A stretch of DNA of 62,121 nt, filler included, from Rhabdomonas costata (taxonomy: Eukaryota): NCBI GenBank assembly GCA_019059605.1. It is 30 parts of 30 records of this genome, joined end to end, with 100 filler letters (N's around TTAATTAATTAA, not from the genome) between each part and the next. Parts side by side here need not be neighbours in the genome. Positions count along the whole stretch, not along the records: positions 12,452 to 14,426 come from JAHMHO010006815.1; 29 more parts are not named here. One strand, given 5' to 3'. The notes under the pieces are model-generated. The model saw only the letters and a list, made by a program, of their open reading frames with translations. It did no database searches and was not told where the DNA came from. The position numbers and the translations under genes were made by a program. Of the stretch, positions 7,915-60,302 are shown in pieces; within the stretch, counting starts at the first letter, position 1, and the number at the start of each line of letters is the position of its first letter.

Positions 7915-8381
7915 CTGAAGTATTCAGCACTCTTTCCGTCCGAGGGGGAGACGAAATGGCCGTGATTCGGGCAAGTTTCCCGCACAGGGCTGTTCAGGTG
8001 CCTGGGATGTGCAGTTCCCGGACATTCTCCGATGGACACAGGGTGTAGACGAGGCCGGCATTGAGTGGACTTGTCCGCCTTGCCTACGGGAACACCCGCC
8101 TGGTGCCTCCCAGAAAAATGAAGATCACACTGTACAGCGAGAGAGTTGGTTGCTCGCTGTCTGGACGGAACGCCGAAATTCCGCGCATGAGCTGCCGTCA
8201 TGGNNNNNNNNNNNNNNNNNNNNNNNNNNNNNNNNNNNNNNNNNNNNTTAATTAATTAANNNNNNNNNNNNNNNNNNNNNNNNNNNNNNNNNNNNNNNNN
8301 NNNTGTGTGTTTTTTCTGCTCTTTCATCACTCCCGGACGATTCCACACAGGAGTCACCACCGCTTGGCGTGCCTTCTCCAG

Positions 8382-9626
8382 GTTGTTGTGGATGGCTCCA
8401 AGAAGGTCATCCTGGTGCACTACCCCCTGCGCTTCATCCACAAGCTTCGCAGGATGCACAAGACTCTGGTGGCAGAGATGGAGAAGAAGTTCTCTGGTCG
8501 GCATATCATCTTCGTGGCGAAGCGGGACATCATCCGGAAGCCGAAAAGGAGCAGCCAGAAGATTCCCAGGTGGCTGTGATTGGAGGGTGGTCGTACCCTT
8601 ATCACTTCCCTTCACTTTGGCATAATTGGAAGGAAGGCTGCTGTCTCCTTCCTCTTAAGAAGTCCTGGTTTCCTTCTCTGTTCTCCCTCTCCTCCTTGTG
8701 TTTCTTCTCCGTGATTCTAATTCCTCAAAAATATAGGTGATATCCGGTGGGCGAATCGAAAGTAATGTTGTAGTGGTGGTTTTGGATCCCCGTCGTTTTA
8801 CTTGTTTATGGATGAAGTTCACCTTCTGAAGCCGTGAATGTCACCGCCTCGCACAGTCGTAAGTGCTTGACCGATCTGCATCACAATACCGATTGAACCT
8901 AAATTCCTTTTCACGACTAAGATTTGCCATGCTGCAGACCATGCACAAGTTTACATAGCCGTTCTGCGGATGCTCAGCTCCAGCGCAATGTGCTTTGCCT
9001 GTTTTTGTGTGTGCAGGACACGAACGGTGACCAAGGTGAACGAGCGCACCCTGGAGGACATTTGCTTCCCTCTGGACATCGTGGGCCGGCGGTGGAAGCA
9101 CAAAGTGGGGGGCCACAAGGTCTTCAAGGTCTTCTTCGACGCTCGCGAGAAGGATAGGGCGGAGCCTCGCCTGGAGGCTTTTGCCGCGGTGTACAAGAGG
9201 CTGACTCACTTCGCCGTGTCCTTTGGGTTTATGACGAAGTACGCCGCCGCGCCTCACACCAACCGTTCCCAATTCTCGCCGCCAAAGGATCTCTTCGCTT
9301 CTTTGCACATGCATGAATCTTATCCATTACGTCCCGATTTCAATAAATGGGAATACTAAGGATTGCACTGCTTTTTCCCTGGCACAGCGTCAGTCCGTCC
9401 AATGAGATTATGGGGAAGATGTCATTTTTCGGGAGTTGTGCAGGTTTCGGTGCATCAGGACAGAGTCCTTTCTGACGGGCTTTTGGTTGCTTAACGCTTT
9501 TTTGTACTTTGTGCTGGGTTTTCGTGGACGTCGAGCGACTGATATGGTCAGCCAGGTCAGCCATCAGCAAGTGTTTCATTTGCTTCGCCTTCTTCACTCA
9601 GCCCTTTGCTGCAGCAGTTCCTGTGA
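8382..9626 (+). CDS. RPS7: 40S ribosomal protein S7 (eS7), last three exons
   Basis: Exons 8382-8569, 9017-9238 and 9602-9626 (two phase-2 GT-AG introns) give VVVDGSKKVILVHYPLRFIHKLRRMHKTLVAEMEKKFSGRHIIFVAKRDI...KIPRTRTVTKVNERTLEDICFPLDIVGRR...VYKRLTHFAVSFGFMTNPLLQQFL*. The eS7 motifs EKKFSG.H..F.A.R, LED..FP..IVG.R and VYK.LT are present. Confidence 0.95.
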
Positions 9627-10850
9627 GGCTGGCACCGGTGAAGAGGTGCTGTGGCTCTCGCTTCCCGAAGTGGGTGCTAACTCCACCAAAATCCTCCGCT
9701 CTGGTCTGGACACCACAGTTTTGGTTCTCCTTTGTTGGTGATTGTTTGCTTCGCATGGGGGCAGGGCGATGGGCGATCTCATATGGCCGTTGTGGTAATG
9801 TTGCATCACTTTGCCAGCTGTCTGCTAGGAACTGCGACTTGTAGCTGTTGCAGGCCGAACCAGGCTTGATTTTTTGTCACCAGCTGAGTGCACCTATTTC
9901 GCGCGTACTGAATAGGACGCAGTCTGTCAGGTAAGAAGAGGCTTCACGCAGCCTTGAGTCAATGTTTTGGACAAAACATTTTGGTTCAACAAAGCGTGAG
10001 CTCACATCGGGCACAGGTGACAAAAACAGATGGGATCGATCGAGTGAAAATCGCCGGGGAGTTATTTTGTCGGTTTTTCGGCAAGACTTCCGTCAGAAAG
10101 GTTGGTGATTCCTCGAACACTCGAGCTTAAGCACGAATTACAATGCGAAAAAAAAACGTCATCGAGATCGCTGTATGCGTGTTGGCCTCCTAACCAGCAA
10201 ATTCTCCTGGGGACACGGAGAAAAACGCAAGCAAACGATTCTGAAACGGCGCCGCCCATCAACCAACGCACACAAACCNNNNNNNNNNNNNNNNNNNNNN
10301 NNNNNNNNNNNNNNNNNNNNNNTTAATTAATTAANNNNNNNNNNNNNNNNNNNNNNNNNNNNNNNNNNNNNNNNNNNNGGGGTTTGGGGACAGGATCTAT
10401 TGGTCTCGCAGGGGGTTAAGTGGCTATTTACGTGCGCCCTACGATAGAGGATGTCGCATGGGGTTAGGGAGCGATGTACGTGCCCCTACATGCATAGGGG
10501 TAGGGGGCGGAACCCCCGCGCAACCGCGCAACACACCCTCAATTGCACGTACCTTGGATCCGCAAAATGCACCGTAAAGGGGTAAATGGGGGAGATCCCC
10601 AAAATGCGCCTACGCCACAAAAGACCCCCAGGCCAGCTTCGGCATCGCCCTTCACAGACGCTGAAAAATTGGGCTGCCAGTCAACTCAATCTTGGCAGCT
10701 AGGAACGAGAGTGTGTGGCATCCTTAGGTATAATTACATTTACATCATTCCATTTAATGATCAATGATCAAAATTTAATGTTAATGTGAGAACGGGATTG
10801 GGCACGGGGTGAGAATGGGCTGTTGTGTTGAGGGGGGGGCGTACTTGCAG

Positions 10851-12286: not shown

Positions 12287-12567
12287 AAAAACAGTCCCTT
12301 AGTGGGGGGACGGGCAAAGTTCAAAGTTCAAAGTTCTGATTCCAAAAAAACNNNNNNNNNNNNNNNNNNNNNNNNNNNNNNNNNNNNNNNNNNNNTTAAT
12401 TAATTAANNNNNNNNNNNNNNNNNNNNNNNNNNNNNNNNNNNNNNNNNNNNGAGATGCCGGAGGAGGACGCAGGAGTGCCACTGAGAGGCTGCGGGGCTT
12501 CAGGGCCGCGGCTGGAGACGGGCCCTGCGGAGTACCGGGAGAGCACAGTGAAGGCCATCCCGCGTAG

Positions 12568-13548
12568 GGCGGGGTGGCGTACCGCCGGGCCATGCTAGGG
12601 GCCCTGGTGTTTATGGCGCACCGCTGCGGGTTGGTGCTTCCGGTGCTCGGGGTGTTTGCCAGCCAGCTGCCCGGACTGGACCTCTCACTGATTCGGTTCT
12701 TCTTGCATAGGGTCTGTTTGCGTGGAACTAAGGGGTGACCTGTACGTTGTAGTTCCTGCCCCCCCACACACACCTCGATATACAGGGTTCCCTGTAGCCA
12801 ATTAGAGGAGGTGACAAGCAGCATGTTTTCGACCAAACTAAAAAAAAATCAGAAAGTGCAGCAAGCAGCCACGCCTAAACCAGCATTTCACCATACACCC
12901 ACACGCATCTGCAGCTCTTGGGAAGGTGAGCAGCCACAAGCTAAAGGCGTGGCACGAAACCACCGCCCCCGGGGTCGTGGTGAGGGTCGGTCAGTTCTTT
13001 CAAAGTGCTCACTTTCAGAAACTGTTCTCTATTTTTTTCAGGTTCCCACCCGCTGTGTTTTCCCTTGGATTGTGTGCGCAAACCGCAGATGCTATCGCCT
13101 ATCGAGCCCCCGTTCTCGGCTGCCTTTGTGGTTTCCCTGGCCTCCATCGTTTGTCACCCTAAGGTCCTCTCCTCTTCACCTCATTGTGCGTCTTCGACGT
13201 CCCGCTCTTCGGCAGCTCCACTCTTTCTCTCTTCAACTTTCTCCTTTCCTGCACCGCAACCCCCGGCAGTGGTCCATGTGGAAGCAAACTTTTCGTTCCT
13301 TTTGTTGAAAAACGGTGCATGTTTCCGCGCGCGTTGGCGATTCCCAAAAACGGCCCCACCCCTGTCACGCTATTCAAAACCCAAAAAAGGTGCTCAGCGC
13401 GATCTCGTCCTCATCCCTGGCCTCCTCTCCGGTGCCGGCGCTGGTGGAGTTCCTGGGCCATACCACGACCTGGGCCAACCCCTACGGCCTACCTGCAGGC
13501 ACCCTGCGCCGCCTCCGGGAGATTCATGAGGTGTTTTCCCAGCAGTGA
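12568..13548 (+). CDS. NELFCD: Negative elongation factor C/D (TH1-like), last three exons
   Basis: Phase-0 exons 12568-12711, 13089-13163 and 13390-13548 give YRRAMLGALVFMAHRCGLVLPVLGVFASQLPGLDLSLIRFFLHR/MLSPIEPPFSAAFVVSLASIVCHPK/VLSAISSSSLASSPVPALVEFLGH...*. This is colinear with the metazoan NELF-C/D C-terminus as recalled (GYVLPVV, DISLIRYFVTEVL..IAPPYTSDFV, DPVTEFIAH). Confidence 0.75.
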
Positions 13549-14526
13549 GGCGGAGCAGCCCTTTCGGCCCACTATGTGCCCTCCGTGTGGTGAAAGGGAA
13601 TAGGAAACCCCACTCTGGGGCGCTCATACCCCGCCCTTTCTGTTTCGACAGGGACAATGCTGCCTTTGAATGGACACCACCCAGTGGTGCGACCTGCGAA
13701 TGACTTCCTGCGGGTGCGTGAGGGGAACGGGAGGTGGAGCCGGGTTTTTGCAGAGGTCGCAATCCCACCCGAAGCTGACACAAAAAGGAGGAGCCTTGAA
13801 CTTGAATTGAACGTAAAAACCAAAGGGGTAAGGGGGCTCGAAATTCTGCGGCTTATAATTTTCACAATTTTCCTTCCTGCCCGCATGAACTCAATAGCAA
13901 GAAATCACGAATATTGAATAACAAGGTCAAGGAAAACGTTTCTTCCTGCTTAATTCTCCGAATTGCTTCCCTTGAACACTTCCCACGGCACATGTTCCGG
14001 CGTCAAGCAAGCAAACACGGTGTACCTAATAGTCCCCTTGCTTGGCAAGAATGCAAACCCACGCGGAGGAGCGTACCCTGATCGAAAACCGCTTCGCTGA
14101 ATCACTCATCATCCGGCGGGTTCAACGCAAGTGCTACCTAGCATGCCCTTCCTGTCGCCGTTCGAAAACATTGCCCGGCCCGCTCCCGTAACACGGCGCG
14201 CCGCCCGGTCTATTTTATCATGTTGCCCGCTGATGGGCCGCATAACAAACAAATTTTAGGTGAAGGGCCGTTTGACGTTTCTGGAAGAAAAGCGTCGGCG
14301 GAATATGGTTGAAGACCCCCCTTGTCAAGTGTATTTGGGGACCCCATGTTTTCGGTGAATTTTGCGGACCAAGGCATCCACGCCGGGCCATCCATCCGGG
14401 TGGATCAGGTGTATTGAAACAACACCNNNNNNNNNNNNNNNNNNNNNNNNNNNNNNNNNNNNNNNNNNNNTTAATTAATTAANNNNNNNNNNNNNNNNNN
14501 NNNNNNNNNNNNNNNNNNNNNNNNNN

Positions 14527-16480: not shown

Positions 16481-19400
16481 CCCAAACACACCAACACNNN
16501 NNNNNNNNNNNNNNNNNNNNNNNNNNNNNNNNNNNNNNNNNTTAATTAATTAANNNNNNNNNNNNNNNNNNNNNNNNNNNNNNNNNNNNNNNNNNNNGAT
16601 CGTTGGCGGCGGGTTCTGCGCGGCTTTCCGGCCTCGCGGGTCTGCACGGGCGGGCCGGCCACGGCCACAGCCACGCCACTGGGGTGCACGGCCTGGGAAT
16701 TTGCCGGGAGCTGCTGCGGTCACGACCAGGGGCTCGGCTGGCCAAAGAGTGGTAACCACTGAACCCGCAGTCTGACTCTGTCCCCTGTCCTGGAGATTTA
16801 ATGCAGTGCTGTGAATGCTCCAACCCGAATTTTTGAAGGGGGTGTTCTCTCTGCATCTGCCCCCGATCCCTTTCCTCGGCAGAGTACCATCAGTCCACAT
16901 CGCTCAGCTAGCAGCTGGCAGACCTCATCACCTTTTCACTGTTCAAAGCCGACACTTCCTGCTTTTTTCTAATCTCTGGGGTTGCGGCAATTACATAACG
17001 CTGGTTCTTTCGTTCGAGGTCGTAACCGACCTTGCACTGTGCCGTTTTGCCAACCGCACACTGCACACCCAAATGAAATGTTTCATCTCTTCGCTTTGCA
17101 CTTCAGGCCACCTCCGTGTAGTATCTGTTGCTTGCGTCGCCACAGATTGTGAGGCGACTGTGGTGACCCAATTTCCGCAATGGGCGCTGGTCCCTGGTCT
17201 TGTTTTTGTTGTACATATTGTGGTTGTCGGAGCTCCTTTTTGCTCGACGTTTGGCGCGCTCTTCCTGGCATTGCTCTGAGTGCGTATTTAACTGCTGTTT
17301 CACACGATTGGTATTTTGTTGTGATCCGTCGAGCCCGCTGACGCAAGGCGATGGTTGAAACTCGCAAAGCAATACTTGAGGTGTTTGGCAGTTCGTCAGC
17401 TTGTCAGTCAGCCATCCAGCCTGTAAGTCTGTGAGTCATCAATGGGGACCACTTACACAGTGTGCAAAATTGGTTTTGCATACATTGACACTAAAGTTCG
17501 CAGTGCCCACAATACTCACAGTGTTTGCAGTGAAGAGAGCACGAGAAAGTCTTTCATTCTCACTGTTCCCTAAAACTGAAAAGCAAAAAAAAAAGGAGAA
17601 AACGTGGGTTCTCGTGGGTGGGATAATCGCTGAAACTCTCCGCTGTGTGGGGCAAGAAGCGGCGCAAAAGAGATACTAAAGAGCCGCCAAGGGGCACCAC
17701 AACCGGCCGAGAGTGAAAAGTCAGAAAATTCTGACCCCACGCAGCGTTTCGGGAGGCCTGCTGTTTTTACAAAAGACCTCAAGCCTATTTTGGCTTAGCC
17801 CTCAACACTGTTGTAAACCCCAATGTACAAAAGAGATGTTTGCTGTTGCATTGAATCTTAAAGGTCTCCTTGCCCAGTTACTTTTCAAAGCGGCCTGCAC
17901 AGCATGCCCTCTGCGCCCACTTCGGGAACCCCTGCTCTGGTTTCGGGCCTGCCAATCTGCAGGCAACCCTGATTTCCTGCAACGGCCGCTTTTTCTTCTG
18001 CTTGCGGCCAGCAATTTCCGCTGGATGATGCAGCAGAGATACGGGCGGGAACACGGACGGACTGGCACGCGGGCCACAAAAAAAAACGAAATTCTTCGTC
18101 TTGGTCTCTGATTTCTTGCTTGCGTGGCTGCACACAGCATCGATATTGTTCTGCATCCGATCGCTTGATGCAGCTCACACCAGATTCTGCAGAGAAAAAA
18201 TTGTTAAGAGTTTGCGATTCTACAGATGCACGCAAACAGTAGGATGTTCTCATGCCATAATCACGGTTTTGCTGGTGACTGATAACTCATGGGAGAAGAA
18301 ATTTCAAATCCATCACAATAAGGCCGTGATTTGTTCCTGGGAAGACTAGAGCAATAGTGATATTCCTTGTGATGTGCGAAAGAAAAGGAAAAGCTAATCA
18401 AGAAGAAGAAACTGAAACAAGACTTTCTCCATGTATGCAAAAATGGGGACTTCGAGGCACTCATTGTTGAAGCGGCAGCAACACAGGCAGTCTTGTCGGC
18501 TGTCTGCGCAGCACCAGATGCTTTTCACAATCCCCACAAACACAGCTTTTCAGCTTGACTTCACAACCAACANNNNNNNNNNNNNNNNNNNNNNNNNNNN
18601 NNNNNNNNNNNNNNNNTTAATTAATTAANNNNNNNNNNNNNNNNNNNNNNNNNNNNNNNNNNNNNNNNNNNNGGGGTGTCTGGCTTCTCCCCCGATGCAG
18701 CGAGCTGAAGCAGGATTCTGGCGCGATACACAGTAATGCAATAAACTGAAGTGAAAGAGAAAAGAACATGCTTTGTGAGCCCTCGCGAACCTGCACGTCA
18801 TTCTCAGACACGGTACAGAAGCTCCGCATTGAAGCAATGCCCTGCTCCCCCAAAGGGATGAAAGATGAGGTGTGATCTCGTTTCGTTTTCCACGTTGTTG
18901 GCAGAATCGCCAAATTTGTCTGTGCGTACTAAACGGGAGATGTACGGCATCCAGCCCGCGGCAAAATTCGTCACGTTTTACCAAAGATTCGCTGGACAAC
19001 AGCAACGCCATTGAAAACGGAATTATGACAAACATCCTCATCGAACTTCGTTATTTTGAGGAAGCGGCCAATCGAAGTGTGGGGTTCAAGGAAGCTGTTT
19101 TACGGTTGCGAGACTTAACCAGCTCTTCAGCATCGGGGGAGAAGCCAGACACCCCGCAAAACTCCGCAAACCCACAGTGGTGCATTAGCGAGTGGGGATG
19201 AGCTAGGCTCCGAGTGCAGAACAAAGTTCGAAGCCTGCTAAATCCAGCAGGTGACAATCCACAAATGCAGATGCACACCGAAGAACAAACCAAGGCAAGC
19301 GCAGATACAAAGATGGCGAGAAGAGGAGGAAAAAGCGCCGGCGGTCAGCGGGAGAGCGAGATGCACAGCAGGTCTGAGGGGCCAAAGCTGAGCGCACCAC

Positions 19401-20804
19401 AACTCTTCAACAACTATCAACCGCCCTGCCAAATCCTTTCCCGAACCCAAAAAGGGAACAACAGTAGGAAAACGACTACAAACCCGAAGCCATGTCAAGC
19501 GATCATGGAAACGTGACTGGTTGACAAACAACGTATTCGCATGAAACCCCCAAGGGGCACGACCCAACGCCGAGAGAAAGCGGTGGCTTAGTTCAGCCCG
19601 ACCCGCGCTGAGGAGCGCGACCCAAACCAAGCACGGAGTTGGTGAAGCCCGAAGCACATCCCGGTGAGCTGGCAGAGCAGGGCCACAGCCAAAACCCCCA
19701 AAGCGGCGGCAACGAGCAGGGCTGTCCATGAGCTCAGACGAAGATAGGGGAAGCGGCCTGAGGACGGGCCCGGGGGGTGGGCCTCCCAGTTCGGCTCCGG
19801 AGGGGAAACCAGAGCGGGGACCACCGCCCGGTGGACCTCAAGGGAGAGCTCCCGGACAGGCAGGCGCTCCCCGTCAACTCCCAGAAAGCCTGCAAAGTGA
19901 TCGAGAGATGGGGGCTCACAACTCGTCGCGAAAGATTAAAAGTTCTTTAACTTCTGGATCCTTTTTCTTTTGGACTTTTGTTTTTTCTAAAGCTTTGATA
20001 GGCCAGACCAAAAATATAAAAGGCTCGGGCACCACGTCTTTTGAATTAGGGCAGGTATATGGGGGAGGACAGTGAACCAACCGAGAGATGGGGCAATATA
20101 CCCCTCCCAAAACGCAGACCTGCGGAGTGCCGTTCACTCGAGTAGAATAGTTACAGCACACACTCACTGGTGCAATAAATCTCCACCAGGTCCCCTTTTC
20201 CAAGCACACAATTTTCAGAGTTTTTGAATGCCAGTGACTCCGTCGCGAGATTAGTTCACAGGCAGATATAACATGAGCGTGGCGTGTGTGCGTGTGAAAA
20301 CCCACGAAGAAGCGCGAAGCACGGGCGATCGGCGGTGGTCATACACATATACTTTGTGCATGAGGGTAACTCTTTGACTTTTTCTGGTGAGGACTCGCAA
20401 TTCTCTTCACCCCCCACTCCGCACCCGAGCTTCCACAGCCCCAGTGGAGCACGCGCCCATCGGGCCTCACACTCTTCTGTCCGCTCTGGCGCCTCGCTAT
20501 ATTTCTCTCCCGTGTCTTGAAGCGATGGCGTCCCCCTCGGGACCTACGGCAAATGGTGCATGCGAGCCCTTGGGACTGGCGCGTACTCTTATTCTTGGGG
20601 GCCAAACCCTCAGCGCTCGCTTGATCCTCCCGGTTGATCCACAACNNNNNNNNNNNNNNNNNNNNNNNNNNNNNNNNNNNNNNNNNNNNTTAATTAATTA
20701 ANNNNNNNNNNNNNNNNNNNNNNNNNNNNNNNNNNNNNNNNNNNNGGTTTTTTGTATCCGCGGCGTACTAGTGCTGCGAGTTGGTTGCTTTTTGCTCGCC
20801 ACAG

Positions 20805-28773: not shown

Positions 28774-29859
28774 CTGGGGCCATACAACCCACAGGAACCA
28801 AAGTCGCACCGGAGCATCTTCCCCTAACTTAGAATATGCATCAGTCCTACGAGCACTGGAATTTGCAATATCAACTGTTTTCTTTCATCTTTTTGAGAGG
28901 AAATAATGTGACGGGTGAAGTCTCAGCAGCATACGAGTTGACACAACAAANNNNNNNNNNNNNNNNNNNNNNNNNNNNNNNNNNNNNNNNNNNNTTAATT
29001 AATTAANNNNNNNNNNNNNNNNNNNNNNNNNNNNNNNNNNNNNNNNNNNNCTATGTTGGTATGAAGGGCGAGAAGGCCGGCCTTGGCTGGTTTGATGAGC
29101 GCTCGGGGGTACCCACTACTCGGTGCTTGCATTACACTGCTTGCCTGTTGGCATAACTGCACCTTACCTACACGGTCACACCCTTTCACCCTTTCAGGAC
29201 GCTTCTTCCCTCTCACACAGAGGGGAAGTGATCTGCAACCCACCGCATTCGAGAACGAACCAGTGCATCGCTACATTGCTACCAATCAGTCAGGAGCCTC
29301 CTGAGAGAGAGGATCCATAGAGTGAGGTGGCCCAGAGGAGAGGACAAAGTGATTATTACTACTACTGGTTGTTTGGGTGGGCTTTGCCAGTGAAAGTTTT
29401 CTAAAGGGGTGGGTTGGGGTGGGGTGAGGACTGTCCCCCCACTACCGTAACAAATCTCATTCAAATAGGCTTTGAGAACCCACGAATGGAGGCCATCCTT
29501 TGGGAAGCGCGGGTGCTGATCTGCTGGAAGGTGGCCCTTGCGGTGGCTGGAGAGGTGGCCCTGTACAACCTCTCTCCCGCAACGACGCAACTGTGCCTCA
29601 CACCCACTGAGCACGGAACCATCTCTCATTGCTTGCGGTAAAGGAACAAATACATGATTTTTGCACGTGCATTGCACGCTAATTTATACGCTACGAAGCC
29701 TGGTCGGGTTTTTGGCTGGCAGGACTGCCGAACTCTCTACAGTGAGCATTCCATTGCCTTTGATTTGAACATCCCCCTTTGGGGGACTTATTTTTTCCAA
29801 AAAAAAAAATTCTGTACCCCATCTTTGGGGCATCCATCCCTTCCTTCGCTAACGGCCAG

Positions 29860-31024
29860 GTGGATCCCGCGGACCTGCTGGCAATCTTCATCTACACCTA
29901 TGAGTGCAGCATCTACAAGGACATGAACAAAGCGATGAGGGAGCGGGACGAGGTGGGCATCGCGAAGTGGCGGCCCTTCATTTTCCACCTCAGCAAGGCC
30001 CTGGAGCGCCTGCCCGGGGATGGGTCGGGGGTGACAGTGCCGATGAAGGTGTTCCGAGGAATCGGGATCCGCTTCGACCCCGCGCTGTTCGGGGTGGGCT
30101 GTATGCCGCACTGGCCAGCTTTCAGCAGCACCTCCTTGGGGTGGAGGGTGGCACACAACTTTCTGGAGCACGGCGAGGGCCTGGTGTTCGTGCTTCGAGT
30201 GCGGCGGGGCAAGTCCATCGCGGCCTTCTCGCGGTTCCCCAAGGAGGAGGAGGTGCATCTTTTTTGCCCCCTTCCACTGTGCAGGGATATTTCCATTTCT
30301 ATAGGGGGGGTGGGGCGTTAAACGCCGTTAAACAGCAAAGTCAAATTATTGCATGATCCCCCCACCTTCCGCTCCGGCCGCGCCTCGGGGGTGGCTTCTG
30401 CCTATAAGCTAATGTTGTCCCAATCGATTCACAATGTCCAAACGTTTAACGCCGTTAAACGTTTAACGCCACCCCAGAAAATACAAATGTCCCGTATTGT
30501 TGGCTGTTAGTATAGTAGTTTTCGCTTTGGATTAGGAAGTGGAAAGACTGTGGTTCCTTTGTGCGACGTACTGCAACACGCTTGAAAAGGGCGTAGCTTC
30601 TGAAGCAGAGAAGCTTCGAAAGGGTTGTGAGACATGAAAAACGTCTTTTTCGCCATCAAAGTTCATAGTCTTTGTTGTTGAATGTGCTGTTCTGCAATTC
30701 ATTGTTTTGCTTTTTTTTATGCCTTGCCCCTGTTTTTTTTGCCGCTCCTTCCCCATTTCCTGTGAGTCCACCGGAGATTTCCGCTCACCGATAAACCCCC
30801 ACACCCCGAAAAGGGCAGTTCTCTCGGCTTCAGTGTGCCAAGACCCTTGGCCTCGTTTAGCGTCATTCCCCCAAATCTCTCCTAGGTTCTGCTGCCCCCA
30901 AACACCTACTTCCGGGTGACCAACCTCGTTAAAGTGTACCCCACCACCATCCAAGGGTGGGACCGCTCCCTTGCCCTTCCGGTGTACCAGCTAACCACGG
31001 AGCAGGCCGCAGCGGCGAAGTCCG
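29860..31024 (+). CDS. R-S-E class (NAD:arginine-type) ADP-ribosyltransferase domain protein, partial
   Basis: Exons 29860-30252 and 30886-31024 give AIFIYTYE.SIYKDMNKAMR...LSKALERLP...KVFRG...WPAFSSTS...VFVL...GKSIAAFSRFPKEEE/VLLPPNTYFRV. All three ART motifs are present (R, STS, ExE). A possible upstream exon starts at 29469. Confidence 0.9.
30284..30493. mobile_element. Candidate MITE-like element with imperfect terminal inverted repeats, in the ART intron
   Basis: The left end GGGATATTTCCATTTCT..GGGGTGGGGCGTTAAACG is matched by the reverse complement of the right end, GGGACATTTGTATTTTCTGGGGTGGCGTTAAACG. Internal CGTTAAAC/GTTTAACG subrepeats. No clear target-site duplication. Confidence 0.45.
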
Positions 31025-35446: not shown

Positions 35447-37101
35447 TCACCCCCTAAATGTGAAACCTGTGTCACTAAGGCTGAGGTGTTTTTTGGGAAA
35501 GTTAGGCAAGGCGAGAAAGGCCTCGAGGATCGCCTCGGCGTGAGCGCAGCTGCTTAGAGAAAGGGTGGTCAGTGCCCTGAGGTTGGGGTGAACCGGGGTG
35601 AAGTACTTCCCCGTGACGTTCCCATTGCCGGACAGCTGCAGACTGGAAACCAGCCCTTTCGAGGTGAAATGAAAACTCGATGGCGGGGCATTGGAAGGTA
35701 ACATCAGTAGTGAAGAAGGGAAAGCATCGTAAGCCAAAATCGGTCAAGGAGACGAGACGAGATGGTTCATTGATTACGGTGTGAGGATATTTCTTTGGAT
35801 ATCCATTTTATGTTTCACAAATGACAAGGGTTGGGATAGGAGGCCCGATGCAACTTCGCGGTTAGTCTTGTGCGGAGGCTGAAAAATGACATTCCACACA
35901 CGAAATACGTTAGATCTACGGTAAAAAAAAGTCAATGGCAATGTTACAAACAACAATCACGCAATGCCACACACCAACACAGCACTGTACGTCGTTCGAG
36001 GTCTCTCTTCATGACAAAAGTATGGCATCAAGGGGGTGCAGGGGGCTGCATCGCTCCCCCACCCCACCAAAAATCACTCGGGAAAACCACACCCTTGGGT
36101 TTTGAGCAGTGTAATCCTCCCTTCGCCCGAGAACACACCACAGCGATCCACGATTGCGGCGAGCTGCCCCGTTGACCACTGCGGTGAGCACACTGCAAAG
36201 GGGACGACAAGATGGAAGATACTGATTCGGAAGCCCGCGGTCACAAGAAAGCAGGATCCCACCTCTGCAACGCGGGGTTGTACTGGTCGTGAGCAAGGTT
36301 CTGTCTTCCTCTGATGTGTTTAACGATAGACAACACGAAGAAAGGAACCAGCCCAAGCGGTCATCTCCTGCAGTCAAATTACCAGGCCCCCTGCACCTCA
36401 AAATCTGGCCCTAGCAGAATCAAAATTCAAACGTAGCTATGTGTAAGAGGCGGCAATGAAACCATTCGATCCGAGCTGTTGGGGATACCGCTGGAACCAA
36501 CGCAAACCAAACCTGAGCAAACCACAAAAAAAAGGGCCCCCAAAAGGCTGCCAGGTCGCCCCACGCGGAATCGCCCAATCTGCGAACTGCATTAATTGCA
36601 CAAACACACGCGGACGGGCTCACTCACCAATCTCGTCCACAGGGCACATTTGGAACAGGCGGCGCCAGAGCTTGCACACCAGCCCGACCTAAACATTCCC
36701 GGCCACAAGCAGACCTCCCATCAGCATCAACAAAAAGTGCACAGCAGACGTCCAATGCAAAGCGTAACAGTCGGAAAGCTGTGGTGTGGGCTTCGTAACC
36801 TATTCAAGCCCAAGGCATGTCTGCACGCCACTGTGCGGAAACACCCTATTTTCATGAGCGAACTGATATTGCGTAGTACCCCCCAACTCGACTCCTTAGG
36901 CAGGGAACACATGCGCAAAGGGACATGAAGTAGAAGCCCGTCGGACCTTGGGAGACGCTTCTTGCCCACCCTCTCCCCGGCATTCACATGCGAAGTGCAA
37001 AGAGGGGATAGGACTTTGCAGACCTCCAATAGCCGCCTCATCGATGTCTCAAAAGAGAGGATCAGCAACACGATCTCAGGGGGGAGACTGCAGATGCGCT
37101 T
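35447..37101 (-). CDS. F-box/leucine-rich-repeat protein, partial
   Basis: Exons (about 37101)-37024 and 36688-36628 join to ICSLPPEIVLLILSFETSMRRLLE/VGLVCKLWRRL, an F-box consensus (LP.EI...IL.F.....L...VCK.W). The exon from 35642 reads LQLSGNGNVTG...LRALTTLSLSSC (LRR). The middle exons are unresolved. Confidence 0.75.
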
Positions 37102-37356
37102 CTTCGTGGCGAAAGAAAAAATGTTGAAAAAGGAAGAAGAACAGAAATAGTACTGCAACGCCTGGGCAAGTACGAACGAGAAACTGCACAGGGAGGCTTT
37201 GGGATAAAAGGTGATATGACAATGCACGGGAAAGCGAAAAAAAAACNNNNNNNNNNNNNNNNNNNNNNNNNNNNNNNNNNNNNNNNNNNNTTAATTAATT
37301 AANNNNNNNNNNNNNNNNNNNNNNNNNNNNNNNNNNNNNNNNNNNNTGTTTGTGTG

Positions 37357-37524
37357 TTATTAAATTATTAAAATTTTTCTTTGAGCATTTTCAACTTTTG
37401 CATCTGCTTGTTTAACTTGTTTAACTAATGCAGCAGGATATAAACGAAAACATTAGTTAAACAAGTTAAACAAGCAGATGCAAAAGTTGAAAATGCTCAA
37501 AGAAAAATTTTAATAATTTAATAA
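37357..37524. repeat. 74-bp perfect inverted repeat with 20-bp spacer at contig start (possible amplification fold-back)
   Basis: 37357-37430 is the exact reverse complement of 37451-37524. Confidence 0.9.
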
Positions 37525-37700
37525 TACACAAATAAGCTAGTTTCACGAGACACACACCAAAACAGAAGTATTCCCTGCACAAGACACTGCAAACCTGTTT
37601 GTCAGGTGCACGTTTTGTTTCAGTTGATGAAGTCTCCTTTTGCTTCTCTTTTGAGACGAAAGGGCAACCACCACAGAAAAGCAAAGGAGAGGGACCGTAC

Positions 37701-39204
37701 CTTCTCGGCCTCCTCGGCCTCCTTCTTCTTATACTCCACGACGTTCTTGGCCTCCGCGTGGTGAATCTCACCGTTGAAGCGGTACCCGTAGAACGACCCG
37801 CGGCCCACGCTCTCGCCCAGCTTGTACAGAAGGTATGCCCAGAACAGCATATATAGCAGCTCAATGAGATCCTGGAGGTCGATCTTTCCACTGAAAACCT
37901 AACAAAAAAATCATGGAACTGAAGAACTGCTGGCGGTCACCGAAGGTAAAAAGTAACAATTGACAACTGGCGTGGGTCAGTGGACCAGAGTACTGTTCGA
38001 ACAGAAGGGGTGAGAATGAAAGATATTCAGTGAATTCCAACGTGAAAGTTCGTAGGGAGGTGTGTGTTTGTGTGTATGCGTGGATCGTTTTCTTGGAGGT
38101 GACACAAGTCATATATCCGCCACGGCTTGCCAAACACGTCGAGCCAGCATAGTCTGGCCAGCTTGTACTGTTGTCTGCAGGATCTGTGTGCCGCTGCAGC
38201 AACTGCCGTCGTGCAAAGCTGGTTCGCAACTCGTGAACCACATGCGTTGCTGGTTTGACGCAGCAAAGCCCCACGACGAAGGTTAAGGTTTGCGGTCAGA
38301 GGTCTGCCACCACTCAAAGTCAGTTCCCGCATTCTGCGCTACGCTGAGCTGCCAATATCTCGATATCTGGCAAGATCTGGCCAGATGTCTCGCCCCACGA
38401 GCGTTCTTTTTTTTTTTTTTTGCTGATGAGTACCATTAGCAAGTGCCCCAACAACCGTGTTGAAAGTGGCGTGCAAGCCGTCAGTATTGAAACGAAGACG
38501 CTCGCATAACTTCGTTGAACGGTGTGGAAGGAGTGGGGTGGGATGGAGTTGGCGTTCAATGGACGTACCCAGCATGATTGCAGTAACATGAAAGACAAGA
38601 CAAGGGACCCCCCCGAAAGAATCATTTTCGATTGTGCTTATCATTCGCTGGGCAGGCCCAGTCCTCAAATCCTGTTCTTACACAAAAAATCATTTGTGAT
38701 GGAGAGGGAAAGCAGGCAAAAGGACAAGAAACCGGGGAGGGAGGAAGATAGAAACGGAAAAAAAAAGCAAGGCAACACACGTTGGCCTTCAGCTTCTCCC
38801 ACTCCACAATCGAGGTTCGCAACCGGTACGGCTGTGAGGCCAGCCACATATTGATGTACTCCGTCCGGGCCACCTGGAGCGGATTCTTCCCCTCACTACA
38901 AAGCAACGCGAATGCAGGAGGAAACCCACGGATATCTCGTGGTTGAATATATTCTTCGGTTTGTTCGCTGATTTTCCATTTTGTTTTTCTCCCCCCGGCT
39001 TGCGCACTTGAACAAGAAGAAAACAACCAGCACAATGAAAATTGCAAAAGTAAAAACAAAAAAAGAAAGGAGAAACCTTTCGAGTTTTGCAACTCGCGCA
39101 AGCGCTTCTTGGGGCGCAAACACTTGCCCGAAGGAGCTCAACTCATTTCCCAATGCCTTGAAAAGCCCCTTTGGAATCCAAGTAGTTGCCGACCAGGTTT
39201 TCTT
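37701..39204 (-). CDS. Mitochondrial ATP synthase Fo subunit g-like protein with charged C-terminal extension, partial
   Basis: Phase-0 exons 39204-39124, 38873-38781 and 37898-37701 give KKTWSATTWIPKGLFKALGNELSSFGQ/VARTEYINMWLASQPYRLRTSIVEWEKLKAN/VFSGKIDLQDLIELLYMLFWAYLLYKLGESVGRGSFYGYRFNGEIHHAEAKNVVEYKKKEAEEAEK. The TM helix ends in GExxGRxSxxGY, the subunit g signature. Confidence 0.65.
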
Positions 39205-39533
39205 CTGGAAAAAAGATGCAAGAATGGCGCTCAGGCGTCCCAACTCTTTTCCGTTCCCCATGTCCCCTCGAGCAACCCATTTGAATTACGAGGGCTTAAG
39301 CCAGAGCACAGGAAACAACNNNNNNNNNNNNNNNNNNNNNNNNNNNNNNNNNNNNNNNNNNNNTTAATTAATTAANNNNNNNNNNNNNNNNNNNNNNNNN
39401 NNNNNNNNNNNNNNNNNNNGTGTTGGGGTGTGTTTGGGTTGTTTGTGAACGGGCTTGGAGCTGTGTTGCGGAAAGCAGCGTTTTTGGTCCGCGTGCGTCG
39501 GAGCGTAGCAGTGTGGTTGGTTGTGGGAGTCAG

Positions 39534-40087
39534 GTACGAGGTGAAGACCCAGGGGGACAGCTTCATGGTGGCCTTCCAGGACCCCTGCCTGGCGGTGGAG
39601 TGGTGCGCCAACCTGCAGCACGACCTGCTGTACCAGGACTGGCCTAGCGAGCTGCTGGCCCATCCCCGCACCAAGGCCGTGGTCTCGCCCGAGGGCCAGC
39701 TTCTGTTCCGCGGGCTCCGCGTCCGGGTCGGGGTGCACACCGGGGAGCCAGACATGCAGTATAACCCCCGGATCAACCGCGTGGACTACTTCGGTGTAAC
39801 GCATACCTCCTCACGGGCATCCCTTCATTCGCTCACTTTTTTCTCTTGCGCGTTGTGAGAAGAGTGAATGAATCACCGAAATAAAGGTAAAGAAGCATCT
39901 GGGTGACAAAGGGCTCTGTAGATGAGGATGTGGTGCGCGAAAGTGGGTGCCTCACTGGTACCGGGGAGATTCAATCTAGGAGTTTTCAACTGGGAGATGT
40001 CAACTAAGCAAGAAGACTAAAACAGGAGCTCAGCAGCTATCCATGCGCTTTTCACATGTGCGCAATTACCCACAGTTTTGCCCGTAC

Positions 40088-43714: not shown

Positions 43715-44839
43715 TTATTTGGGAACTGGGGTGCAGCTGACCAACATACCCACAAGACGATGGAGGGCATTTGGTGTTCGACGAGTAGCCGCCGGGGAAA
43801 CGGGCTGTGCAATCGATTCAGAAGCATTCATGCAAAACGGCCTGGAAAGTTCACTGCGAATACTGTGAATACTGGTTCCCACCGGAAGCAGTTCGGCGGC
43901 TGGCTGGCGGTGCTCAGAATAAAATTCCGCAACAAGTGGGTTGAAACCGACAGTGGTGAAGTGGTGCGCCTCCGCCAGCGGGGATCTCTTTACCGGAGCG
44001 GAGAGGACTGGAACTTTGGGAGAATGTGCAGTGCTTTGTAGCGCACCAGAAGAAAGCGCTCTGCAGCTCAGTTTCCCAGCTTCCAAATGTTCCAAAGGTT
44101 CCATATGGACAGCAGACATGCTGCGGGAGAGTTGGACGACCGTGGGTCGGACCGTTCTCCAGGAACCATCGACCACAAGAAAATGCGTCGCTGCATCTCG
44201 AAGAGTGATGTTTGGCTGAAACTCTAACGACTGAGAAACAGGAGCAGCGCAGACGTCGCAGAAGCTCAGGGTGGAGGTATGCTTTAGGCATACGGAGTGT
44301 CCGCACCGAAGAGTCGTGGGAACAAATTCATCGGCATCAAAGGGGTGTGAGCAATGCACGCATTTAAAAGGCTCAATCCCCACAACGAGACTAACGTGAA
44401 GACTACTGCTGCTTGGACCGCAAGAACACGAACTCTGATGGGGCACTATTTCACTCCATTCGTTGACACTCTTTGGACAAGATCCTCTGAGATGCTCCTC
44501 CCAAGCCATCTCTCCCCCACGGCACGGGGGGGAAACGCGTCCGCAAACCTGAACGTGCACTTTCACGTTCGGATTCTGGACCAAGCATTGAGCGCCCGAA
44601 CAACCTTTCCTTTTCTTCTTGTTGGCGCGTTTAAACAAGTTTGCTGCCTCCTGAAGGGCAACACTCGGGAGACACTGCTCGGAGGAAGGGATCTCTGCGC
44701 GGCAGAAAGGACAGCAGCTAAGATGAGGAACATGCCTGAGACACACGGAGTGGCCGCACGGAAATGTGGTGGGACGGTGCTTCTTTGAGTTATATAGACT
44801 CAGGCAAAGGCAACACTCAAAGGGGCAAGAAGCGGACAT
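43715..44839 (-). CDS. Intronless 374-aa protein with two RING-finger domains (probable E3 ligase)
   Basis: ATG at 44839. CCLC-x15-CGHSVCLRH-x6-CPFC and CVHC-x15-CGHSVCLKH-x6-CDVC are each followed by a P[S/N]xxL.[E/D]AAxxF helix, with a Cys/His-rich linker between them. Confidence 0.85.
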   Translation of the reverse strand: MSASCPFECCLCLSLYNSKKHRPTTFPCGHSVCLRHVPHLSCCPFCRAEIPSSEQCLPSVALQEAANLFKRANKKKRKGCSGAQCLVQNPNVKVHVQVCGRVSPPCRGGEMAWEEHLRGSCPKSVNEWSEIVPHQSSCSCGPSSSSLHVSLVVGIEPFKCVHCSHPFDADEFVPTTLRCGHSVCLKHTSTLSFCDVCAAPVSQSLEFQPNITLRDAATHFLVVDGSWRTVRPTVVQLSRSMSAVHMEPLEHLEAGKLSCRALSSGALQSTAHSPKVPVLSAPVKRSPLAEAHHFTTVGFNPLVAEFYSEHRQPAAELLPVGTSIHSIRSELSRPFCMNASESIAQPVSPAATRRTPNALHRLVGMLVSCTPVPK

Positions 44840-45939
44840 CCTTTTTCGTCCTCGCTCTGAATCAAAAACCAAAAGCAGAGCACTGTATCGAGCACGAAAT
44901 CTAGCCGTTGTTCCGTGAACGTATTTTTAAGGAGATTTTCAGACCTTTTTTCAGACCATTTTCAGACCTTGCCCACAAACGGGAGTTTTAAATGGGGAAT
45001 ATTGTCTGATGCAACGAAGGGCCGAGATTCAGCTTGAGAAAGCGTAAACAGTTGCATCAGGAAATGACCTATGCTGCACAAAGCAGCACCAAACTGTTGC
45101 GAAGTCTAAGAAACGACAAGCTGAACTGAAAAATGCACTACAGAAGAAAAAAAAGAAGATCCTACTCGGCTGTCGTCTACTCCCAAGTCCTTCAGTAAAC
45201 TCGTTGTAGTCATAAATCACGCCATAAAAAATGCTGCCAGATCGCCATTTCTTAACTAGCGCCCAATTACAACCCTAAAATCGGCAGAAAAGGTCGCTTC
45301 CTTTTGTGACGCTGCACACCTTCGTTACTGACGCAGCCAACTCGGTTTTACCCACACATATTTGAATCCCTCCTTCAAAGTCAGTTAAAAGAACGAAAAC
45401 ATGAAGGCAGCCACGGCAACGGTCACTCGCTAAGAAAAGCGACCAGAAGATCCGCCCGTAAAATTTGTTTCTCCCACAAAGGTTCCCACAGAAAAGGAGA
45501 GGATGCAGTTAGCGAGAGCTCGCTTCCCAACCAAACCCNNNNNNNNNNNNNNNNNNNNNNNNNNNNNNNNNNNNNNNNNNNNTTAATTAATTAANNNNNN
45601 NNNNNNNNNNNNNNNNNNNNNNNNNNNNNNNNNNNNNNGGGTTTCTTGCGTGGGTGTTTGCACTAGGGGTTGGTTTTAGGTCTTTGGTTTGGTATTTAAT
45701 GTTCGGTATTTGGTTTCGGTTTAGACAGTGGTCTTTTAGTTATGCAGGCGCACGTGGTTTGAGGGCAATCCAAATGATTTGTGGTGTGGAACGCCATTTT
45801 TGCGACTGGGTAGCCTTTTGTTAGGCAGGGTCTCGGTCTTGGTCTCGGTTTCGCCACTATGGATTTGGCCTTCTGTCTATGGTCCCGTAGAGTAAGGTTC
45901 AAGACACTGAGCTGGATATGAGTGCAAGGATCTCTTGGT

Positions 45940-54313: not shown

Positions 54314-55894
54314 ATGCCTCCCAAGGACATCCTGACTATCTCCAGCTTGAGCAAAGCTGATGTGCAGATAATTCTGGACACCGCTCAGGTTGGTTTTTCC
54401 CTTTCGCACGCCTTCAATCTCTGTGTGAGTGCCAACCCAAGTCACGGTCATTTCGTATTGTATGTCTGTTCCCGCCTGCAGAGATCATTTGCAGGTCGAA
54501 AGTTCCCACTTCTAGTTTGCTCTGGCTCCTGCTCCCAGAACTTCCGAAAACATTGTCATTTAATATCTAAAATGCAAAATGGTTCGATTATTACCACTGT
54601 CTTTCGGTTTGATGGGTTTGCAAAGGATTTTTCTGCCTGCGGGGTGCCCGTTTCACAGGTTTTTCTCTTTTCTTTCCAGGACATCAAGAAAACCCCTGGG
54701 AAATATGCCTCCTGCATGAAGGTGATGCTCGTTATTACGTTTCCAGAGAGAGGAGAGCATAAGTGAGTTGATGGCATTACATACTGTGGGCAGTGCCCAA
54801 TCCTGCATCACCACCCACCCAAGCATCTCCACCCCAGAACGTCTTGCTCGGCTTCTGGTGTGCGGGATTACCTCCTGGGTTTTAGGTGTCAGCTTTTCGA
54901 TCCCAGTTCAATTCTGCTTTTGTGGGGTCTGCTGTTCGAATGGAATCCCTTTCTCTGCCTTCTCTGCGTTGAGACGTCCCGGCTGTTTTCTGCAGCAAAA
55001 GACGCTGCTGATGCTGTTCGAGAAGCCCTCCCTGCGGACTCGGGTCTCCTTTGAGACGGGGATGACTCAGATGGGGGGGCACGCCATCTACTACAACATC
55101 GCGGACTCCCCGCTGGGCAAGAAGGAGTCTGTCTCGGACACTGCCAAGGTTCCCAGCTTACTCTCTTTGTCATGTCATGACGCCTCACGGTGTGGCCACG
55201 TTATGTTTCAGAGGATTTCCCTCTTCCTTATTTACGAAATGCCTGGGCTTTCGTTCTGAGCCGAGTTCATTGGCGGTTAAGGTAGTAAGGTGGGATCACG
55301 TGTACAGTATGCTGCGCGATGTATTATCCGAACTTTGCCGGATTTTTTTCCGTCGCTCTGTTAGGGTCCATCGAAACTGGTTGCCGCCAAGAACTGTCTG
55401 TATGCACTGTACGGGGTCACCCAGACAACAAACGAAAGGCAAGACAGTGGTTTTAAAATACTTGAATCAGCAAATCTGGCCTTGCTTGGTGGTGTGTAGT
55501 AAAGAGGCTTTTAAGGTGAGCATAAGAACAGAAGGTGAACATGTTGGCGATGCATGCTTCATAAATGAACGAATGCTTTGGTGAGATTCGTAGGATCTTT
55601 TTTTTTGCGGACGGGCACGAGGTACACCCTCACAGCATCCTCGCACTTTATCTCCGTCGACGCACCTTGCTCCGCCGGAGGGCAATCCATTCCTGCGGCA
55701 CAAATATTGCCTTACCGACGGTAGGGCCTTAGGTCTTGCCTTGACTGGTGCACCCCTCCCCCTGCCATGTGGCGCAGGTTCTCAGCCGGTTCGTGGACTG
55801 CGTCATTGCCCGTGTGAAGACCCGCCAAATGGTGACTGAGCTGGCGCAGAACTCCACCATCCCCGTCATCAACGCCCTGGATGACTGGGCCCAC
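54314..55894 (+). CDS. OTC: Ornithine carbamoyltransferase, first four exons, no targeting presequence
   Basis: Exons 54314-54388, 54680-54721, 54996-55148 and 55778 to contig end give MPPKDILTISSLSKADVQIILDTAQ/DIKKTPGKYASCMK/QKTLLMLFEKPSLRTRVSFETGMTQMGGHAIYY...LGKKESVSDTAK/VLSRFVDCVIARV...IPVINALDDWAH. The carbamoyl-phosphate-binding SxRT and the VINAL...H motifs are present. Confidence 0.93.
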
Positions 55895-56351
55895 ACCAAC
55901 CCNNNNNNNNNNNNNNNNNNNNNNNNNNNNNNNNNNNNNNNNNNNNTTAATTAATTAANNNNNNNNNNNNNNNNNNNNNNNNNNNNNNNNNNNNNNNNNN
56001 NNTGTGGCGGGTGTGGGTGGGTTTGGGGGTACGTTTGTACGGTTGAGGGAAGTTGGTAATCCAGAGGGATATTTCCTCCCTTTATTTGCTTCGTTGTGTG
56101 ATTGGCATCCCGTGGGTGTTGTCTGGTACCGGTGAGAGGGCTGGTGAAGTCGTTTTTGTCATGCTTCAGGGGATGCAAACAGAAACCTGGTAATCTTCCT
56201 CATGGGACTGCTCGAATGGAGAGCTTGCGCTCACACGCAGCATGCCAGAGCAGCAAAACGACACACACATACACACAAAACAACCCTACCGTACTCGTAC
56301 TGCCTAACTTATTTTGTTTTCCTGAAGTTGGGATTTTCTTTGCACGCACAG

Positions 56352-57857
56352 TGTGTTCCGCCAGTGTGGTAAAGATTGACCACAAGAAGCAGTTCTTCGT
56401 CATCTTCATCCCCAAAGTAAGCTCTCCATTTCTTTCCCTCCTTTGGGATCGCCTAGATGTCCCGGAGGAGTTATGAAGTTAATATTGTGCTGACTTTTTT
56501 GAGTTTTTTCCGTAGAAACCTCATCTAAATCGTTTTTCAGCTTCGTCACAGTGTATTTTGATTGCCTGCTTGATTACAGTATCATAAGATGGCATCCCTA
56601 CGCCGGTATTTTATACTGTGGTGCTTCTACATTGGTTTTTTTTGGGGGGGCTCCAACTCCGCCGCAACTCCAATTTTGGGATCTCCCCGCAGTATGCTGT
56701 GGAGTACCGGGTCTCGTCCAAGGACAAGGACCAACCCAACATTGTGTGCCCTCTTCCCCTCCCCACCCCTTCCGCCTTGTTGCAGATTCTCTTTCAACTC
56801 CTATATGTGGTGTGGTAACCTCATATGCACAGCTACCCTCTGCGGGAGCGAAGAAGGTCAACAGGTGGGACAGGTGGGAATGCAGCAGCACTGTTTCGAC
56901 ACCAAAATACGCACCGATGTCATCGGGACGAAAGGCTTGCCTACTTCTTGCCTTTTTCCCTGGTGCGCACGGCCTCATGAGGAGCAGACTGCTGCCGTTC
57001 AAATGGCCGTTGACAACTCCGCTTCATATGACCTGCCGCTGTGCATGGCCGACCTCCCACAATCTTGTTCTTTGTGTCCAGGAGCGTCTAGACTTCACCT
57101 CCAGCGAGAGCGATGTGGGGTGCACGGTGTTCTGGAAGGGCTCACAGGTGCGTGAGGGGCGAGCGGGCGAGGAGGGAGCGAGGGGTTGCACGACGTGCAA
57201 GATATTGGAAGCTCGCAAAATTGTGAGGTACGACGACCGAGGATGGAGGCCCGATCTCATCCCTGGCTATTTGGGGATTTTGGGGGATTTTCTTATGCAA
57301 GATTTCCGAGGATCTGCGTCGCATAGGCGTCGCCGTGCAGCATGCTTGAAGTACTGCTATTCACTGCAACCTCGTATGACTGATCCCCATCCAACGACCA
57401 ATGCCACCGTCGTCGCCACTTGATTTGGTAATAATGGCCGGTGTCGCCTTAAAAATGAGAGTTTTCTTTTTCCAAAATGCCATCATTCAAATTTAAAGGG
57501 GGTTTAGGGATAGAAAAAAAGGTTGTTAATGTCAGCAAAATTACTGCTTGTTCACTCGAAGTCGAGGTCACGCCTCTTGAAATGCACTCATCTCTTCCAG
57601 ATGTGCGGGTGACCTCAACTGCAGTTTTTTGCCTTTCAAGTTTCACATGGCACGGGTAGTATCTTTCAGTTAAGTCCTTTCCTTGCCTTTCCTTGCCTTT
57701 CCTTGCCTTTCCTTGCCTTGCCTTGCCTTGCCTTGCCTTGCGCGCGCGCCAGAGCCCACCCACCGCGGTCGTGGTGCTGACCACGTTCCAGGTGGAGCTC
57801 CGGTACACCCTCACCGCGATGAGTCGCGTCTCATTCACGTGCACGTTCCTGCGGGAG
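56352..57857 (+). CDS. Probable C-terminal S1 region of a DIS3L2/RNase II-family exoribonuclease, four exons
   Basis: Exons 56352-56416, 56693-56743, 57082-57147 and 57753-57857 splice in frame: CSASVVKIDHKKQFFVIFIPK/YAVEYRVSSKDKDQPNI/ERLDFTSSESDVGCTVFWKGSQ/SPPTAVVVLTTFQVELRYTLTAMSRVSFTCTFLRE. The A.V......F.V.IP.Y..E.R pattern matches RNB-family S1 domains. Confidence 0.5.
57676..57740. repeat. (CCTTT/CCTTG)n pentanucleotide microsatellite
   Basis: CCTTTCCTTG units followed by CCTTG units, just upstream of a splice acceptor. Confidence 0.92.
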
Positions 57858-58265
57858 GTAGCCCTTTTCCACATTTCTCTTACCGGTTCTTTCGTGCAGC
57901 CCCAGATGTCTTTTTGGCAATGCCAGGAGAGAGAGATAGAGGGAGAGAAATGTGGAAAAGGGCTACCACCCACACNNNNNNNNNNNNNNNNNNNNNNNNN
58001 NNNNNNNNNNNNNNNNNNNTTAATTAATTAANNNNNNNNNNNNNNNNNNNNNNNNNNNNNNNNNNNNNNNNNNNNTGGTTTTTAAGTCATCTTCTGTTGT
58101 CTTGCATCATTTGGTCTTAGAAATGCGGTGGCTGATGTTCACTCGACGTCTTTGCCGTCTATGAATAACTGGTCTGACAAGAGCAGGCGATCGATCAAGC
58201 GACGCGTTGGAGTTCACGGGAATTCGGGCAGAGGCTACATAAAGGGAGATGCGCGAGGCGGAAAC

Positions 58266-59781: not shown

Positions 59782-60302
59782 CTGCGGACAGGGCGCGCAT
59801 TAAAAAGTCAGAAGTCAGGTCCAGAGTTGATTTGCACTGCTTTTACGTTGCACTGCACGGTGCACTGCCTTTCGGAGCCACAAAACTCATAGCTCGGTCT
59901 GGGCCATTCAGCTCCCAGGAGCTCTCGCAAAAGGTCAACACGCTTCTCTACAGTACCGCGGCCAGAACATCCCAGCCGCCATGAACGCGCACACACTGGC
60001 AGCCGGGCAGCTCTCTTGGAGAAATCCAGAATGGTGCCCCAAAAAACCNNNNNNNNNNNNNNNNNNNNNNNNNNNNNNNNNNNNNNNNNNNNTTAATTAA
60101 TTAANNNNNNNNNNNNNNNNNNNNNNNNNNNNNNNNNNNNNNNNNNNNGCATGGTCTTTTCTTTTCTGCAGTCTATTTTCTTTTCCGCTTTCCGATTGAG
60201 TGTCACGTGCTGCCCTTTGGCGGACCATGCTTTTCTCTTTCCTTTGGTAAGGCCAAGGAGATACCTTCTCCCTTCTTTTCCTTCCGGTTCCTTTCTTTTC
60301 CA

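Follow-up and report, generated by a model that had tools for sequence, protein, structure and literature searches.

The locus described here raises the question of whether the genome of Rhabdomonas costata (GCA_019059605.1) encodes a homologue of NELF-C/D, the TH1 protein and a subunit of the factor that in animals slows Pol II soon after initiation, and, if so, whether such a protein could act on Pol II in a trans-splicing lineage. NELF-B and NELF-C/D are reported to be widespread and to have been present already in the last common eukaryotic ancestor, with two elements, NELF-E and the HDAg-like domain by which NELF-A binds Pol II, confined to animals and their close kin (10.1101/2023.02.19.529146). 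NELF-C homologues have been described in Chlorella and Dictyostelium (PMC4940160), and NELF is reported to be absent from Paramecium (PMC12716044). In trypanosomes, NELF orthologues were stated not to be identifiable, and since DSIF was likewise called unidentifiable in the same work (10.1101/2023.11.23.568479), the statement may reflect search sensitivity. Our literature search, which did not extend to the species table of 10.1101/2023.02.19.529146, returned no NELF report for Euglena, euglenids or Euglenozoa; the main text of that study mentions neither euglenids, Discoba nor Trypanosoma, and a term search found no mention of NELF in a 59-species Discoba survey, which gives a directon length of ~4 in euglenids (intermediate) vs ~30 in trypanosomatids (10.64898/2026.07.29.740908).

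The window, i.e., the whole stretch of DNA analyzed (62,121 nucleotides), comprises 30 unrelated contigs of ~1975 bp each, with 100-base spacers between them, taken from an assembly that totals 97 Mb and is divided into 104,289 contigs. The candidate locus lies on contig G000:C6815 (window positions 12452-14426), preceded by an artificial spacer between unrelated contigs (12352-12451); neighboring window contigs were rejected as gene context, being unrelated and joined by spacers. Elsewhere in the window we noted a NAD:arginine ADP-ribosyltransferase domain (29764-30318, plus strand, E 6.8e-15), fragments of a nucleotide cyclase (39421-39855), a carbamoyltransferase (54726-55256), a RING protein (43715-44923), a histidine kinase (60105-60827), Ufm1 (30535-30990) and an F-box-like protein (36730-37245), and an open frame of ~658 codons spanning a whole contig (33199-35172, plus strand) with no Pfam match. 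Another contig of the assembly (L046, 1960-2349, plus strand) weakly matched the ligand-binding domain of neurotransmitter-gated ion channels (E 0.009).

Exons, introns and the rearranged 5' end

The original prediction comprised three spliced exons between positions 12568 and 13548, and this part of it was borne out: the three segments are real coding exons, given their in-frame, phase-0 GT-AG junctions and a coding-type third-position GC content (GC3) of 0.68-0.83 vs an intron GC content of ~0.52. On the plus strand, the 3' part of a long exon (12571-12711, GC3 0.83) is followed by a phase-0 GT-AG intron of 377 nt (12712-13088), a 25-codon exon lying in frame between AG and GT (13089-13163, GC3 0.68), a second phase-0 GT-AG intron of 226 nt with an A-rich acceptor (13164-13389), and the last coding exon of 52 codons plus TGA (13390-13548, GC3 0.83). 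Second-position GC is 0.43-0.54 in the three exons, intron GC is 0.52-0.53, and the GC3 of a paraflagellar rod exon and an RPS7 exon from the same assembly is 0.88 and 0.83, respectively. Within the region where the frame of the last exon stays open, the acceptor of intron 13164-13389 is the sole AG that keeps phase 0, and for intron 12712-13088 an alternative acceptor at 13041, used with a phase-1 donor, is possible. The ends of this latter intron can pair (-22.0 kcal/mol vs -14.4 +/- 3.1 in shuffles, 9 of 500 being as low), this intron being one of five covered by the test.

Two upstream pieces of the gene lie outside the window, on the minus strands of contigs G000:C55904 (hereafter L002, positions 123-401) and G000:C52970 (hereafter L009, positions 437-563), the gene thus being spread over three contigs. 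On L002, the frame stays open for 93 codons after an acceptor, and its final eight codons coincide exactly with the beginning of the predicted first exon; on L009, an exon with a GC3 of 0.83 is followed by a GC-AG intron of 664 nt. Joined together, the four exons (the L009 exon, the long exon and the two further window exons) form a frame of 251 codons uninterrupted by a stop, which includes a Ser/Gly/Pro-rich insertion of 66 residues, containing 16 Ser, 4 Thr and two S/T-P sites. Before two of the four acceptors, an A-run takes the place of the pyrimidine tract (window 13380-13389; L009 564-575, minus strand).

The first 127 nt of this contig (12452-12578, minus strand) repeat, in inverted orientation, an upstream stretch of the long exon (~codons 4-46 of that exon). 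A DNA search of the assembly showed them to be identical to L002 265-391, and their minus strand reads in the frame set by the acceptor found in L002. Positions 12571-12594 (24 nt) are identical to the minus strand of L002, and the two identities overlap in an 8-nt microhomology at the strand switch of the contig (12571-12578, plus strand), as in a fold-back chimera. The acceptor at 12567, implied by the predicted exon start at 12568, lies within this inverted segment and was therefore rejected as probably an artefact and not the gene's own; we corrected the start of the exon on this contig to 12571. L002 also folds back, at a 5-nt microhomology, with these 127 bases present in inverted form at each of its ends. 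A dispersed repeat is whole at the right end of L002 (profile positions 3-241) and present only from position 121 at the left end, which indicates that the left end is the false joint. Across the first joint, L002 has the sequence in un-inverted form, and the 127-mer leads on to L009, where the overlap chain stops. The DNA search of the assembly found the un-rearranged joint on no contig, and the reconstruction therefore rests on the 24-nt overlap and on continuity of the frame.

Similarity to the TH1 family

The window exons were predicted to be colinear with the C-terminus of NELF-C/D, and they presumably do resemble that of the human protein in order. Taken alone, they matched nothing informative. 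Pfam TH1 gave no match among the locus segments scanned (sets of 6, 2 and 4), and a sequence search of the PDB returned nothing for the first and second predicted exons and one unrelated match for the third. A homologue search with the first exon yielded 129 candidates, none at E <= 10, and a phmmer search of 1.84 billion representatives returned a single repetitive protein (E 9.5e-4), which we dismissed after inspecting it. A profile combining the two partly overlapping pieces of the long exon (93 columns kept) was also set aside, as it matched two unrelated chains. Two runs against the ESM Atlas gave no usable match, and a metagenome scan found three loci matching 20 residues at 65%.

The single-sequence model of 12568-12711 comprises helices 3-19, 24-33 and 38-47 (mean pLDDT 75.9). 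The single-exon models, of 48 and 43 residues, are helical, as would suit this region, and too small to match anything; a NELF fold was not recovered, with no Foldseek match to either model and, for VIA-align of an exon model, a best Z of 3.6 and no NELF among the 50 matches listed.

The similarity that carries the identification is that of the upstream exon on L009. With Pfam scans of single exons, TH1 (PF04858) was the sole match of this exon under four of five boundary choices (E-values 0.24, 0.10, 0.094 and 0.062 across 24,736 families), the fifth giving none. The score of 10.5-12.4 bits, over profile positions 408/411-429 of 579, lies below the gathering cut-off of 24, so that the profile comparison named TH1 at a sub-threshold level for this exon and gave nothing for the window exons. 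A phmmer search against the PDB returned eight rows at E <= 10, seven of them NELF-C/D (E 0.84-1.4) and near-copies of one protein, with an unrelated DPY30 at the top (E 0.82). The weak alignment places the exon at NELF-C/D residues 419-448 of 590, its first aligned residue being not established, as it borrows letters from the acceptor. From residue 419 onward, 172 residues remain in the human protein and ~186 in our model without the insertion. In human NELF-C, R419 and R506 contribute to a basic patch, and the RNA-binding patches comprise R291, K315, K371-374, K384/388, R419 and R506 (PMC4940160); the codon equivalent to R419 is split here by an intron whose upstream exon was not recovered, and the other positions either lie beyond the recovered part or gave no tool-based alignment.

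Broader searches contributed little. A homologue search with the L009 exon gave 201 candidates and none at E <= 10, the genome-wide search for the TH1 family gave no candidate and missed even the TH1 exon of L009, and two NELF-C motif patterns matched the assembly 1 and 12 times, with no NELF-like match on inspection. The part recovered corresponds to about the last 30% of the protein by human numbering; the N-terminal ~70% was not recovered. Nevertheless, the family was named before the L009 exon was found, the exon matches where colinearity would place it, the length left up to the stop is as expected, and none of 47 control frames matches TH1. Judged from these sequence comparisons, the locus is very probably the 3' part of an intron-containing nuclear NELF-C/D (TH1) gene. 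The predicted colinearity thus gained a weak match at the expected place from the L009 exon, and the window exons themselves stayed unmatched.

Possible function, host and alternative readings

The C-terminal half of human NELF-C is made of three HEAT repeats, contacts NELF-A and cross-links to NELF-B (PMC4940160). The locus would encode the helical region corresponding to these repeats, together with the 66-residue insertion, in a protein that we infer to fold like NELF-C. It may pair with a diverged NELF-B, and perhaps also with the N-terminal domain of NELF-A, to form a minimal NELF core, which could slow Pol II shortly after initiation and produce a broad proto-pause instead of the sharp pause of animals. 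Pausing indices are reported to be higher in species with only NELF-B and NELF-C/D than in species with none (10.1101/2023.02.19.529146), which makes this role the most likely one, and on balance we lean toward a euglenid NELF-C/D gene, represented by its 3' part, whose product would belong to a minimal core slowing early Pol II elongation.

The main rival reading, which we consider unlikely yet deserving of attention, accepts a true euglenid NELF-C/D and places it outside Pol II pausing, as a helical scaffold in RNA processing or cytoplasmic signaling whose partners have been lost or have diverged. It would fit the strong divergence and long insertion of the protein, the restriction of NELF-E and the HDAg-like domain noted above, a pausing-independent cytoplasmic role reported for NELF-B (PMC10591015), and family searches of the assembly that gave no candidate for NELF-B (COBRA1, PF06209) or NELF-A (PF23553, NELF-A_N). 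However, the same method missed the TH1 exon, its controls were silent too, and the searches for the partner subunits therefore carry little weight; the raised pausing indices of species with the core only also argue against a role unconnected with pausing. An extension of the minimal-core reading, in which a euglenid minimal NELF holds Pol II near start sites, with phosphorylation of the Ser-rich insertion acting as its switch, would provide gene-level control of elongation in a trans-splicing, partly polycistronic genome. We regard it as speculative and improbable as a whole; if true, loss of NELF would be one step toward the unregulated polycistronic transcription of trypanosomatids.

As to the host, paraflagellar rod searches gave nine matches over the cut-off on seven contigs of the assembly, among them a gene with GT-AG introns on contig L019 (G000:C299, 1400-2450), after which comes a long tandem run of ATTC. 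An intron-split gene for RPS7 (ribosomal protein S7e) occupies window positions 8304-10278, and its exon scores highest against PDB entry 6zj3 (85.5 bits), ahead of four entries that we take to be trypanosomatid (73-77 bits) and 45 others (at most 63 bits). PDB 6zj3 is tied to a paper on the Euglena ribosome (PMC7672448). The paraflagellar rod genes and the closeness of RPS7 to 6zj3 point to a mainly euglenid-like assembly, and the euglenozoan-like genome anticipated by the original prediction was supported at this level. A search for spliced leaders found none with Rfam SL2, a nematode family poorly suited to the task, and none with a euglenid pattern.

An improbable alternative is a real NELF-C/D from another eukaryote whose DNA is present in the assembly. 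Two dispersed repeats bear on this point. One, with a consensus of ~220 bp, lies 3' of the gene (window 14314-14415) and recurs 12 more times, at 72-83% identity, spread over 11 other contigs; the other, of ~200 bp, lies in the GC-AG intron (L002 ~494-751) and has at least 38 other matches at 71-90% identity, with 40 of 59 candidates scored. The contigs sharing these repeats bear ordinary eukaryotic genes (PARP, PIP5K, CCDC39 and carrier exons), which argues against contamination; one carrier of the 14314-14415 repeat, L003, also holds a fragment of an ISXO2-like transposase (E 1.8e-6). Neither repeat occurs on the paraflagellar rod or RPS7 contigs, and no overlap ties the three contigs to these. 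In further favor of a second eukaryote, the CCDC39 exon on a repeat-sharing contig prefers PDB entries 8tek (27.2 bits) and 7ju4 (23.1 bits) over 9y6s (16.3 bits) and 9e5c (15.0 bits), the latter two being presumably trypanosomatid. As another test of lineage, a mitochondrial carrier exon returned a single, unnamed protein. On the other hand, the GTCTG donor and GC3 of the NELF contigs match those of the paraflagellar rod gene, and in Euglena gracilis GC-AG introns are reported to be common and the G at +5 prominent (659 GC-AG vs 11,527 GT-AG introns; PMC11170887). We therefore consider it highly probable that the NELF contigs derive from the euglenid-type host.

Equally doubtful is the reading in which the protein is an unrelated helical one that matches TH1 by chance. 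The sub-threshold scores would be compatible with it, as would the chance DPY30 match of equal size in the PDB search and the lack of a fold match for the exon models. As a control, 47 GC3-rich ORFs were scanned, retained from 56 after nine with clear domains had been dropped; nine of the 47 match some family at E <= 0.27, which shows that weak matches do arise, but none matches TH1. TH1 had been named ahead of the discovery of the L009 exon, which puts the chance at ~1e-5 or less per test, and the colinear position of the match and the fitting length downstream of it likewise argue for a genuine NELF-C/D.

Finally, real inversions in the cell, with a rearranged, invertible or scrambled gene, would agree with an assembly that holds both rearranged joints and not the plain one, but we rejected them as very improbable, since at both joints the sequence is inverted, with loss of what lay between, at a 5-8 nt microhomology, the main chimera type reported for multiple displacement amplification (inversion with deletion at 2-21 nt complementarity; PMC1855051). 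In addition, L002 retains un-inverted sequence across the first joint, and the repeat in its intron is complete at one end of the contig and truncated near the joint at the other. Of 50 contigs sampled (30 window contigs and 20 fetched), 4 carry terminal inverted repeats, their status as chimeras being that of candidates. The gene appears instead to have been split over three contigs by fold-back chimeras like those of whole-genome amplification. Such chimeras create false splice sites in this assembly, of which the locus is a clear warning. The four sampled contigs with inverted repeats reaching an end, possibly further fold-back chimeras, are those at window 18673-20645, 37347-39319 and 56003-57975 and at L036 13-151.

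Significance and comparison with known systems

If confirmed, the gene would place NELF-C/D in Euglenozoa and support from the Discoba side an origin of the family at the root of eukaryotes, and the absence reported for trypanosomes would become a loss, datable against the growth of polycistronic units. Because euglenids are included in EukProt v3, a euglenid NELF-C/D may already be tabulated. The collection was searched in the study describing the distribution of NELF (10.1101/2023.02.19.529146). Taken alone, the finding is modest, as it adds a further diverged member to a family that had already been described as ancestral. Euglena is genetically tractable, and the action of a two-subunit NELF core on Pol II in a trans-splicing organism would be testable there.

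Compared with metazoan NELF-C/D (PF04858; PDB 5L3X_B, 6GML_W and 7YCX_g), the candidate is alike in the alignment of its L009 exon at residues 419-448, in its length to the stop codon, and in helical predictions that correspond to the helical C-terminal half of the animal protein (PMC4940160). It differs in being far more diverged, with scores below the cut-off, in its 66-residue low-complexity insertion and slightly longer C-terminus, and in that partner subunits were not detected by family searches that also missed TH1. With the core NELF of unicellular eukaryotes such as Dictyostelium and Chlorella it shares the presence of a NELF-C/D homologue in a single-celled eukaryote, but the host here belongs to Euglenozoa and the candidate is known from the gene alone. 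The trypanosomatid Pol II elongation machinery belongs to the same phylum and to a trans-splicing lineage, but NELF orthologues were stated to be unidentifiable in trypanosomes (10.1101/2023.11.23.568479).
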